64,000 nt of DNA from Dictyostelium discoideum (taxonomy: Eukaryota). Location: NCBI GenBank assembly GCA_000004695.1, contig CM000152.2, positions 6,080,001-6,144,000 of the forward strand. Reading direction: 5' to 3'. Under the pieces are notes generated by a model that worked only from the letters and a program-made list of their open reading frames with translations, was not told the origin of the DNA and ran no database searches. A program made the translations under genes and the position numbers. This document shows positions 1,891-11,580 of the stretch, piece after piece (the stretch's first letter is position 1; each line of letters starts with the position of its first letter).

Positions 1891-4800
1891 TTAATTAATT
1901 TTTTCATGATTATTATTATTATTATTATTATTATTTTGATTATTTTGATTATTTAAAGTTGAATTTATTGTTGGAGTTGTTGGTAAATTTAATTGATTAT
2001 TTTTAAAAGTTGTTAAAGAATATAATAATTGTGGTTGTCTAAATACTTGAATTAATTCATGATAAAGTTCTTCTTCAAGTACTAAATCACCATATTCACG
2101 AGCAATGAAAACATCATCAATCATTTTTAAGATTTCATCACAACTATCTAAATTTTCCAATTGAATTTTAATACTAATTTGAGTGATTGAAAGACGAAGG
2201 AATCTACCGACCGATAATACAACTGAAACGTAAAGACCAATAATACCAGCAGATACCAATGTACTAGTGATACCATTTGGTAATTTCGATGAGATTGTAT
2301 AGAATTGAATTGATTCCAATGTTGATATATTATAAGTTTTAGTTGAATCATAAGCATTTACTTGCCAAAAATATTGTGGTGGTTGATTTGAATTATTAAA
2401 ATTTGTAGAATTCATTGTAAATAATGCATCTAAAGCTAAAACATTACCATTATTATCAGTTGGATAAATTGGATTACCTGATACACCTGGTAATTTTATA
2501 AATTTATAAAATAAACCTTCAACTATAAAACTATTTGAACCAATATTATTATTTGAATTATTATTATTATCATCACTACCGCTACTACTATTTTCATTTG
2601 GATTATTTGAATTATTTGAATTATTTGATTGAACTCTAGTTAAAATATTATAAAAATTTAATTCTTGATCAGGTTTTAATTGAACAGAATTTGAACCAAC
2701 AATAACCGAATTAACACCACCACTTCTTGTTAAAGTATAGGAAACTTCAATTTGTAATGAAGTATTTGTTAAAAGATAATTAATTAATTGAGCTTTTGCA
2801 GGTGGTGATAAATTCCAAATTTCCTCTGAAAAAGTATTGATAGAAATATTTTGAATACCTTGTCTATCGTCAGTTGTAAGGAATGAATAATCTTCTTTTA
2901 AATTATTGAATGAATTTTGATCCATAGTAGAGTCACCATCACCACTTTCTAAAGATAAATCTTGATTAATCTTTAAGAAAGGATTCCAACCTACAACAGA
3001 GACTTCAATTTGAATATTATTAACTGGTTCAATATTTGAACCAGGTAAACCAGATGATAAAATAATTAATGGGAACCATAATAGAATAACCAAACCAATG
3101 AAAAAGGTAACACCAGTTACAAATTTTTCAAATTTTGGTTGTTTATGACCTTTTTGACGACCTTGTCTTTTTATCCATTCTAATCTACATTTGACAGAGA
3201 AAATTGTTGAATAAAGATCTTCAAATTTTAACCAATCATAGAAAAGCATAGTTGTATCAGTTGCAATCCAATCCAATAGAGTTCTTAATTCATAAACGAA
3301 TGGAATCGCTTTATACAATGCATAACCAATATTGTGAAAATCGGAATAACCATCCATAAGGAACCTATTTTGTGATAGAATTGGATAACCATAACAAATT
3401 TGTAATGCACTATAATAGAGATAAATACATTTCATAAGGTAGAAAACAACCAATGGCCAAGTATATCCAAAACTGAATGGTTTCACTATTAAATCTGGGA
3501 AATAAAAGAAGAGGAAAACATGATAAAGTACTGTGAGCACAATTTGAAGGACAAACTTTGCTTTAACTGATTTGTAAAGATAAATGATACGATCTAAAAT
3601 GATTACACCAAATTGTGCCAATAAAATCACAATATATTGACGTGGTATAACATTTTGTTCTAAAAATTCGGCAATATCCGATGATGGTATACCTGTGAAA
3701 TTTTGTGGGAAAATCACCAAAAAGAATAAACATGCAAAATCTGTAAATAATAATGGCATATAATAATCTCTACCTGGTTTTTCATCAGTTCTAATCGCTA
3801 ACCAAACATATTCAATAATTGATACAAATAACCATTTGAATGGATATATAATTATTTTTGCAATTGATTTTGATGATTTCTTTATAACTTGTATCTCTTG
3901 TTCATCATTTTCTTTCTCTTGTTCATTTCTATCATCAAATTCTTCATCATAAAATTCATTAAATTGTTGTTGATCTTCTTCATCATATTCGTTTGAACAA
4001 TCAACTAAAATTTGATCAATTATAATATTATTATTATTATTATTATTATTATTATTATTATTATTATTATTATTATTATTATTATTATTATTATTATTAT
4101 TATTATTATTATTATTATTATTATTATTATTATTATTATTATTATTATTATTATTAATATCAATTAAAGTTTGATCATTATTATTATTATTATTATTATT
4201 ATTATTATTATTATTATTATTATTATTATTATTATTATTATTATTATTATTATTATTATTATTATTATTATTACTACTATTTAATGATATTGGTGAATTA
4301 TTTAAATCTTGTTGATTTTGAATTTGATCAATTTGTTGTTGATCAAAATGTTGTTGATCTAAATTGAAAAGATTTAAAGGTGATTGTTGTTTTTGATCAA
4401 CATAGAAATCTTTTTCTTGGAAATTCCAAAGTCCTTTTGATCTATAAACATGTCTATGCCATAAACAACATAAAAGAATTGCTAAATCCCAAAAAGCACC
4501 AGAAATGAAATGACCATCAATAATATAAAGTCCAAATACATATGGTAATGTTAATAATAAATTTTGTTCTGATAATAATGTATTTGGACATTGCCACCAT
4601 TCATAATTTTCATTATTATTTAATTGATTATTATTATTAATATTATTATTTGTATTATAAACTGATGTTGATGTCATTAAAATTGTACCATTATTACTGT
4701 TATGATAATTTTCATTACAATTATAATAATTCTTTGGAATTTGGAAAACATATTTAAGACAAATTATTAAACTACTATAACCAATCATAAATCTCCAAAA

Positions 4801-10800: not shown

Positions 10801-11580
10801 TATTATTATTACTACCACTATTAAAATTACCACTACCACCATGTACATATGGTGAATTTAAAATTTGATCGACATCTGAATTAATTTTAATATCTTTTGG
10901 TATTAATAATCAATAAAATGTTTTTTTTTTTTTTTTTTTTTTTTTTTTTTTTTTTTTTTTTTTTTTAATTATACAAAAACAAAGTGAAAAAACTTACTAT
11001 TTAAACTTGTAGTTTTTTTTAAAGAATCTTTAATATTAATTGAAGCTGGATAAACTAAATTCTTAAACCATAAGATTATAGTGAATAATGATATGACAAA
11101 TACAATTACATCTGGTAATACATTTCTGAAAACTATCCAAAATGAATTATATTTATAGAATCCAAATGCTGTTAAAATATTTACTGATAATTCATCTTGT
11201 TCTTGAAATACTTTTACAACGTTCACTAATAATTGTAATATTAAACTAAACATTGATAGTACTAATGTTATAATTGGTAATGTTTTTGAAATTTTATCTA
11301 TGTTTATGATTTTTTTTTTTTTTTTTTTTTTTTTTATTATTTAGAAAATTTAATTAGGTTAGTGTGTGATCAAATAAATAAAAAAATAAATAAAAATAAA
11401 AAATAAATAAAAAAAATAAAAACAAAACTTACTTTTTAATATCAATGATTTATGTGGTAAACATAAAATTGATAATAGGAAAAAAATAAAATAAATGTAT
11501 GATACAACATTTGATCTGAAAACTGATGAACAAATCAATGAAAAAGGATAAATTAATGACACAAAGAAATATCCTATCAT
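1891..11580 (-). CDS. pzoA: Piezo-type mechanosensitive ion channel homolog (about 3086 aa, five exons)
   Basis: The giant minus-strand ORF 1891..9948 is multi-pass transmembrane. Its C-terminal third aligns unmistakably with Piezo: AIPFVYELRTLLDWIATDTTMLFYDWLKFEDLYSTIFSVKCRLEW versus animal [40 protein letters not shown], and GIIGLYVSVVLSVGRFLRLS...DEILKMIDDVFIAREYGDLVLEEELYHELI versus the animal C-terminal extracellular domain and beam. Exon model from GTAAGT donors and frame continuity (plus-strand coordinates): exon 1 is 11580..11433 (MIGYFFVSLIYPF..., phase-1 end), exon 2 is 11297..10998, exon 3 is 10893..10620, exon 4 is 10507..10144, and exon 5 is 10068..1894 with the stop at 1891..1893. 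The four introns are 135, 104, 112 and 75 nt. The upstream exons align with the first Piezo repeat (VKVFQ versus mouse VKVSQ; LPDVIVFVISLF versus APDLGVLLASSL; WPLVIGYITVLLLY versus WPIYVSPGILLLLY). The M shown at 9948 in the ORF track is a GTG inside exon 5, not a start codon. The gene symbol is recalled from the literature and was not verified. Confidence 0.85.
4028..4272 (-). repeat. (AAT)n coding microsatellites inside Piezo, as two blocks that encode poly-Asn
   Basis: Plus-strand (ATT)n blocks lie at about 4028..4155 and 4178..4272. Similar blocks occur at about 5077..5190 and 7421..7540. All are in frame and encode N-runs in the Piezo ORF. Confidence 0.9.
8166..8286 (-). repeat. (CAA)n microsatellite encoding a poly-Gln run of about 42 residues inside the Piezo CDS
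   Basis: The plus strand is (TTG)n from about 8166 to 8286. The minus-strand translation is QQQQ...Q within the 2685-aa ORF. Confidence 0.9.

Follow-up and report, generated by a model that had tools for sequence, protein, structure and literature searches.

Five-exon structure of the Piezo gene pzoA in a 64-kb stretch of the Dictyostelium discoideum genome

Identity of the locus

We analysed a 64,000-nucleotide stretch of Dictyostelium discoideum DNA (contig CM000152.2, positions 6,080,001 to 6,144,000; hereafter the window), which is very AT-rich, with a GC content of 10-30%. The minus strand between 11580 and 1891 almost certainly carries pzoA, the single Piezo gene of this organism (DDB_G0282801; RefSeq XP_640187, 3080 aa), in five exons. 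The consulted parts of Srivastava et al. 2020 (PMC7007555) name pzoA as the single Dictyostelium Piezo homologue and describe its knockout. According to the same parts of that paper, pzoA-null cells under compressive load kept their pseudopods and did not switch to blebs, and the response to load also required extracellular calcium. Six knockout and screening primers of that study were taken from its supplement and preprint. All six mapped uniquely in the window, with no mismatches in their genomic parts, at the following positions:

PZ1, 11592-11560, spanning the ATG at 11580 and MIGYFFV, with no mismatches
PZKO1, 11555-11523
PZKO2, 9993-10025
PZKO3, 3008-2981
PZKO4, 1688-1723
PZ2, 1634-1664

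The homology arms implied by these positions are 1563 and 1321 bp, in agreement with the published lengths of 1.56 and 1.32 kb.

Exon-intron structure and start codon

The open reading frame (ORF) list for this region shows a 2685-aa ORF on the minus strand (1891..9948) that begins at a GTG, and its open frame continues upstream to 10101. Upstream of 9948 on the same strand, shorter ORFs are listed at 10126-10431, 10969-11253 and 11359-11580. The minus strand was read from 12300 to 9700, where four GTAAGT donors were found, at 11432, 10997, 10619 and 10143. All AG acceptors downstream of each donor were then enumerated, and every combination was translated. Only four combinations were in frame and free of stops, yielding proteins of 3086, 3080, 3074 or 3068 aa. 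These models differ at intron 1 (exon 2 from 11297 or 11261) and at intron 2 (exon 3 from 10893 or 10875). Introns 3 and 4 have a single possible acceptor each, so that exons 4 and 5 begin at 10507 and 10065. Because XP_640187 shares the start, the four junctions and the C-terminus, the gene model was fixed at 3080 aa, as follows:

11433..11580, minus strand, exon 1 (148 nt): residues 1-49 plus 1 nt; ATG at 11580-11578; transmembrane segments TM1-TM2 of the first helical unit
11298..11432, minus strand, intron 1 (135 nt): GTAAGT...TAG, 10.4% GC
10998..11297, minus strand, exon 2 (300 nt): residues 50-149; the junction LILK followed by NKISKTLPIITLV equals XP_640187
10876..10997, minus strand, intron 2 (122 nt): GTAAGT...CAG, 10.7% GC
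10620..10875, minus strand, exon 3 (256 nt): residues 150-234
10508..10619, minus strand, intron 3 (112 nt): GTAAGT...AAG, 10.7% GC; its acceptor is the sole one keeping the frame open
10144..10507, minus strand, exon 4 (364 nt): residues 235-356; contains Met261
10066..10143, minus strand, intron 4 (78 nt): GTAAGT...AAG, 10.3% GC
1891..10065, minus strand, exon 5 (8175 nt): residues 357-3080 and the TAA stop at 1893-1891; encodes the remainder of the blade, the beam-like helix, the THU9-anchor, the outer helix, the cap, the inner helix and the C-terminal domain

The introns are 78-135 nt long with a GC content of 10-11%, compared with 21-24% in the exons, and each contains in-frame stops. Intron 1 carries the sequence CACTAAC, which on our reading resembles a branch point, and the first AG past it is the acceptor used. 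The first-pass annotation of this DNA had held that the 2685-aa ORF is only exon 5, and the four donors together with frame continuity bear this out. As a separate observation, the coding strand of introns 1 and 2 includes long uninterrupted stretches of A (11310-11335 and 10921-10966, minus strand), and the one in intron 2 extends over 46 nt.

An in-frame stop lies 27 nt upstream of the ATG at 11580 (MIGYFFVSLIYPF, in the context AAAAAAAATG), and no other start intervenes. In the model, the V encoded by the GTG at 9948 is residue 396, and the ORF track therefore misses 395 codons, close to the approximately 400 claimed earlier. When ORFs are listed for Dictyostelium DNA in the bacterial manner, about three helical units of this channel, by hydropathy count, are thus concealed.

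The segments of XP_640187 were read from the alignment printed as Fig S1 of Prole & Taylor 2013 (PMC3681921). In this segment-wise comparison, the start, the four exon junctions and the C-terminus of XP_640187 were identical to those of the 3080-aa model, with no difference from PzoA (DDB_G0282801) in the segments compared:

MIGYFFVSLIYPFSLICSSVFRSNV, N-terminal start of XP_640187
MIGYF..FVSLIYPFSLICSSVFRSNV, equal to the model
LPHKSLILKNKISKTLPIITLVLSMFSL, equal to the model
SLNNV-DQILNSPYVH, equal to the model at the exon 2/exon 3 junction
QIEYFYMKYT and HGWTIC, equal to the model
NNNNHEKIN, C-terminus, equal to the model

In the same alignment, the Dictyostelium N-terminus lines up with the very beginning of the fish, fly and mouse sequences, and we therefore expect no additional exon upstream.

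None of this is novel: pzoA, its division into five exons and its part in sensing pressure have all been published and curated before. The first-pass annotation rightly called the model recovered, although it did not recognise that a curated model already existed and that the gene had been studied functionally; the model is not new. As a discovery, the re-derivation of pzoA matters little. Its worth lies in its use as a control, in which a five-exon eukaryotic gene model was rebuilt exactly by a tool-free reader from raw sequence.

N-terminal blade and alternative gene models

Next, we examined the N-terminus against the Pfam profile Piezo_TM1-24 (PF24871), whose cutoff is 28.8 bits. The spliced N-terminus matched profile positions 1-323 at 60.6-61.7 bits (E = 6.5e-17 for the best), in line with the earlier claim that the four upstream exons align with the first transmembrane repeats of animal Piezo. 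Exons 1-2 alone matched positions 1-115 (29.5 bits, E = 3.5e-7), and exons 3-4 alone matched positions 178-331 (26.7 bits, E = 2.5e-6), colinear with the match of exons 1-2. When spliced residues 1-949 were used, the score rose to 105.7 bits (E = 3e-30). Exon 5 also matched positions 500-676 of the same profile, as well as PF25288 in Pfam, and THU_Piezo1 (PF23188) was matched at residues 2068-2237 with 84.7 bits.

These scores bear on where the protein begins. The plain ORF list shows only downstream starts, the GTG at 9948 and the ATG at 10431 (MKYTVF); if either were correct, what we call upstream exons might be chance open frames in AT-rich DNA. However, exons 1-2 and exons 3-4, each taken separately, match consecutive stretches of the N-terminal Piezo profile, and a protein begun at MKYTVF has no Piezo profile match. 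In addition, each of the four introns is bounded by canonical GTAAGT...AG signals and marked by a steep fall in GC, and the ATG at 11580 is used by the annotated protein and spanned by the published primer PZ1. A downstream start is extremely improbable and was rejected, since the profile match is lost without the upstream exons and both the annotation and the primer use 11580. The start at 11580 and the internal position of the MKYTVF methionine, which is residue 261 within exon 4, are both as the first-pass annotation had placed them.

The acceptor of intron 1 was weighed in the same way. If exon 2 began at 11261 rather than 11297, the model would still be in frame and stop-free, giving a 3068- or 3074-aa protein lacking NKISKTLPIITLV. 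This acceptor, however, passes over the first AG after the CACTAAC element and scores 50.3 bits on the Piezo profile, against 60.6 bits for an otherwise identical model, and XP_640187 contains NKISKTLPIITLV. The 11297 acceptor was preferred because the alternative costs about 10 bits. With its lower Pfam score, its skipped AG and the presence of NKISKTLPIITLV in XP_640187, the 11261 acceptor was rejected, and we give it next to no chance.

Intron 2 has tandem in-frame acceptors 18 nt apart on the minus strand (AG at 10895-10894 and AG at 10877-10876). The annotated protein uses the second, with exon 3 from 10875; use of the first would start exon 3 at 10893 and insert IKINSD after residue 149, giving 3086 aa. 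The longer product, whether as the main form or as an alternative isoform, is a model that is in frame and stop-free, its acceptor is the first AG past the donor, and the Pfam scores are nearly equal (60.6 bits from 10893 and 61.7 bits from 10875). Nevertheless, IKINSD is absent from XP_640187, and the 18-nt segment encoding it has 11% GC, which is intron-like compared with 21-24% in exons. The 18-nt extension is therefore considered unlikely, and the 3080-aa model with exon 3 from 10875 was retained.

C-terminal pore module and comparison with known Piezo channels

The C-terminal region gave the strongest family matches. Piezo_cap (PF12166, formerly Piezo_RRas_bdg) was matched at residues 2736-3041 with 234.9-238.2 bits (cutoff 26.9; E = 2e-69), and Piezo_THU9_anchor (PF24874) at residues 2455-2693 with 263-266 bits over the full profile, positions 1-238 (E = 2.4e-78). 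The profile alignment proposed in the first-pass annotation thus places the spliced model above the cutoffs of both Piezo_TM1-24 and Piezo_cap. The anchor contains the following motif:

3268..3303, minus strand, PF(X2)E(X6)W motif PFVYELRTLLDW, residues 2611-2622

This motif is described in the consulted parts of Prole & Taylor 2013 (PMC3681921) as a signature absolutely conserved in all Piezo homologues. A phmmer search against Piezo1 and Piezo2 chains solved by cryo-electron microscopy (cryo-EM) gave E of about 1e-75 and aligned the anchor, the outer helix, the inner helix and the C-terminal domain. The inner, pore-lining helix and the C-terminal domain formed a phmmer domain of 59.6 bits, in which GIIGLYVSVVLSVGRFLR...LEEELYHELI is aligned with mouse GIVGLYVSIVLVVGKFVR...LEEELYAKLI. 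The cap, the THU9-anchor with its motif, the N-terminal blade and the colinear inner helix with the C-terminal domain are therefore all above cutoff or present in PzoA.

As read from the sequence, PzoA has an N-terminal blade built of repeating helical units and a strongly conserved C-terminal pore module, together with a putative long beam-like helix. The pore module consists of the THU9-anchor, which carries the PFEW motif, and of the outer helix, the cap, the inner helix and the C-terminal domain. Homology with mammalian Piezo1/2 suggests that three PzoA subunits form a cation channel that is gated by mechanical force and permeable to Ca2+. Trimeric assembly and a mechanically activated current would follow from this homology, and the Dictyostelium evidence is genetic only.

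The pore module is colinear with that of mouse and human Piezo1 and Piezo2 (cryo-EM structures 5z10, 6b3r and 6kg7; E of about 1e-75), and, as in these proteins, the N-terminal blade profile is matched from position 1. PzoA has IQLENLD where the mouse Piezo1 alignment has IMFEELP. Like Piezo2, PzoA has helical units parted by long linkers, which in Piezo2 are disordered. Unlike Piezo1, it is about 500 residues longer, chiefly through linkers rich in Q, N and S and five homopolymers of 32-43 residues. The consulted parts of PMC3681921 describe the PF(X2)E(X6)W motif and the arrangement of the C-terminal transmembrane segments as common to protozoan and plant Piezo homologues, and PzoA shares both. 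The same source describes the N-terminal arrangement as varying widely among protozoan and plant lineages; that of PzoA is colinear with the animal proteins.

Several points weigh against this assignment and gene model. Exons 3-4 alone, at 26.7 bits, fall slightly under the Pfam cutoff of 28.8. When the N-terminus alone was compared with PDB chains by phmmer, no chain was found at E <= 1; for this region, the Pfam profile alone is sensitive enough. The junctions are predicted from signals in the genomic sequence, from profile scores and from their match to the current annotation rather than from transcripts. Likewise, the placement of the N-terminus would rest on the profile and the annotation rather than on an independent ortholog alignment. 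No such alignment was obtained because a homology search with the 304-aa anchor region gave a single match, a 423-aa metagenome fragment with 57% identity. A search with the 477-aa N-terminus produced 8000 word candidates, none of them significant, and our guess is that poly-N words swamped the candidate list. Finally, no electrophysiological recordings of Dictyostelium Piezo channel activity were found in the consulted parts of the literature.

Homopolymer tracts

The linkers of PzoA contain the following tracts:

8164..8286, minus strand, poly-Gln Q41 (residues 950-990): 41 perfect CAA repeats
7414..7530, minus strand, poly-Asn N39 (residues 1202-1240): charged linker between two hydrophobic clusters
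5071..5181, minus strand, poly-Asn N37 (residues 1985-2021): long linker between the beam-like helix and the THU_Piezo1 match
4027..4272, minus strand, poly-Asn N32 (residues 2288-2319) and N43 (residues 2327-2369): linker between THU_Piezo1 (2068-2237) and the THU9-anchor (2455-2693)
Shorter tracts: N11 (residues 1789-1799) and S10 (residues 774-783)

The first-pass annotation had described an uninterrupted poly-Gln run of about 42 residues, and 41 were found. Its range of 35-45 residues for the poly-Asn runs holds for N39, N37 and N43, and N32 is slightly shorter. None of the homopolymers overlaps a segment matched by a Pfam profile, and Q41 begins five residues past the point where the Piezo_TM1-24 match stops. 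In mouse Piezo1, too, about 145 residues are left unaligned between the THU_Piezo1 and THU9-anchor regions. In mouse Piezo2, seven large disordered domains lie inside the cell, and two of them have been described as linkers between blade helices. In Piezo2, the unit at residues 675-812 is followed by a disordered domain (812-957), and the aligned Dictyostelium unit is followed by Q41. Because the tracts lie outside the profile matches and their positions parallel the linkers of Piezo1 and Piezo2, they were assigned to loops, as had been predicted.

The long poly-Q and poly-N tracts are (CAA)n and (AAT)n microsatellite expansions, probably tolerated because they sit in linkers that join helical units. 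Nearly 10,000 homopolymer tracts have been reported in the Dictyostelium proteome, and in the 64-kb window four other ORFs carry N or Q runs of 23-53 residues:

30119-34507, plus strand, ORF with N30, N31 and N23
40160-42721, plus strand, ORF with N27
49228-50529, minus strand, ORF with Q28
52906-54879, minus strand, ORF with N53

Because these four ORFs carry such runs, the tracts are considered routine in the Dictyostelium genome, and the earlier description of them as unusual even in this genome does not hold.

Helical units of the blade

The Piezo architecture comprises 38 transmembrane segments, made up of nine four-helix units and the outer and inner helices. In the hydropathy profile of PzoA, hydrophobic segments are grouped by fours and fives into about 10 clusters. 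A single-sequence AlphaFold2 (AF2) model of residues 600-1720 had a mean predicted local distance difference test score (pLDDT) of 41 and a predicted template modelling score (pTM) of 0.27, and gives a weak secondary-structure hint only. Within this otherwise poor model, residues 1649-1716 are predicted to form a long charged helix (pLDDT 70-77). Just upstream of this predicted beam helix, the match to Piezo_TM25-28 is weak (18.9 bits, under the cutoff of 27). From hydropathy and the low-confidence AF2 model, eight clusters precede the beam-like helix, compared with seven units in mouse Piezo.

Clusters 3, 6 and 7 (at about 355-462, 1005-1135 and 1258-1392) had no Pfam match in single-cluster scans at E <= 10. 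An all-against-all phmmer comparison of the ten hydrophobic clusters gave marginal scores only, and PDB searches with blade slices gave one match, of cluster 5 to Piezo2 residues 675-812. Thus, unlike mammalian Piezo, PzoA has three hydrophobic clusters with no detectable profile match, and the tally of about 10 units against 9 is an unsettled count.

One tentative reading of these counts is that the PzoA blade has one more four-helix unit than in mammals and that the cytosolic linkers with their homopolymers, rather than carrying neutral microsatellite insertions, tune gating as the disordered domains of Piezo2 do. We consider this doubtful. If it were true, PzoA would have roughly 42 transmembrane segments and a longer blade.

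Neighbouring genes

A scan of the whole window for tRNA genes found none. A convergent neighbour of pzoA lies at 613-1766 on the plus strand, probably in two exons (ORFs 613-1122 and 1191-1766). Its N-terminus resembles a signal peptide on our reading, and it matches beta-N-acetylglucosaminidase (PF07555) with E = 9e-10. The stops of this gene and pzoA are just 125 bp apart, and the primers PZKO4 and PZ2 lie inside the neighbour. Upstream of pzoA, on the opposite strand, ORF 12418-12780 (plus strand) had no match in the Pfam scan. This ORF and ORF 13593-13745 (plus strand) have nearly identical N-termini, MEFYTHFSVDRELLEIYIYILKVLLACKMFNFVVPIKTFF and MEIYTHYNVDRESLETFLYILKVLLACKMFNFVVPIKTFF, and look like tandem paralogues.

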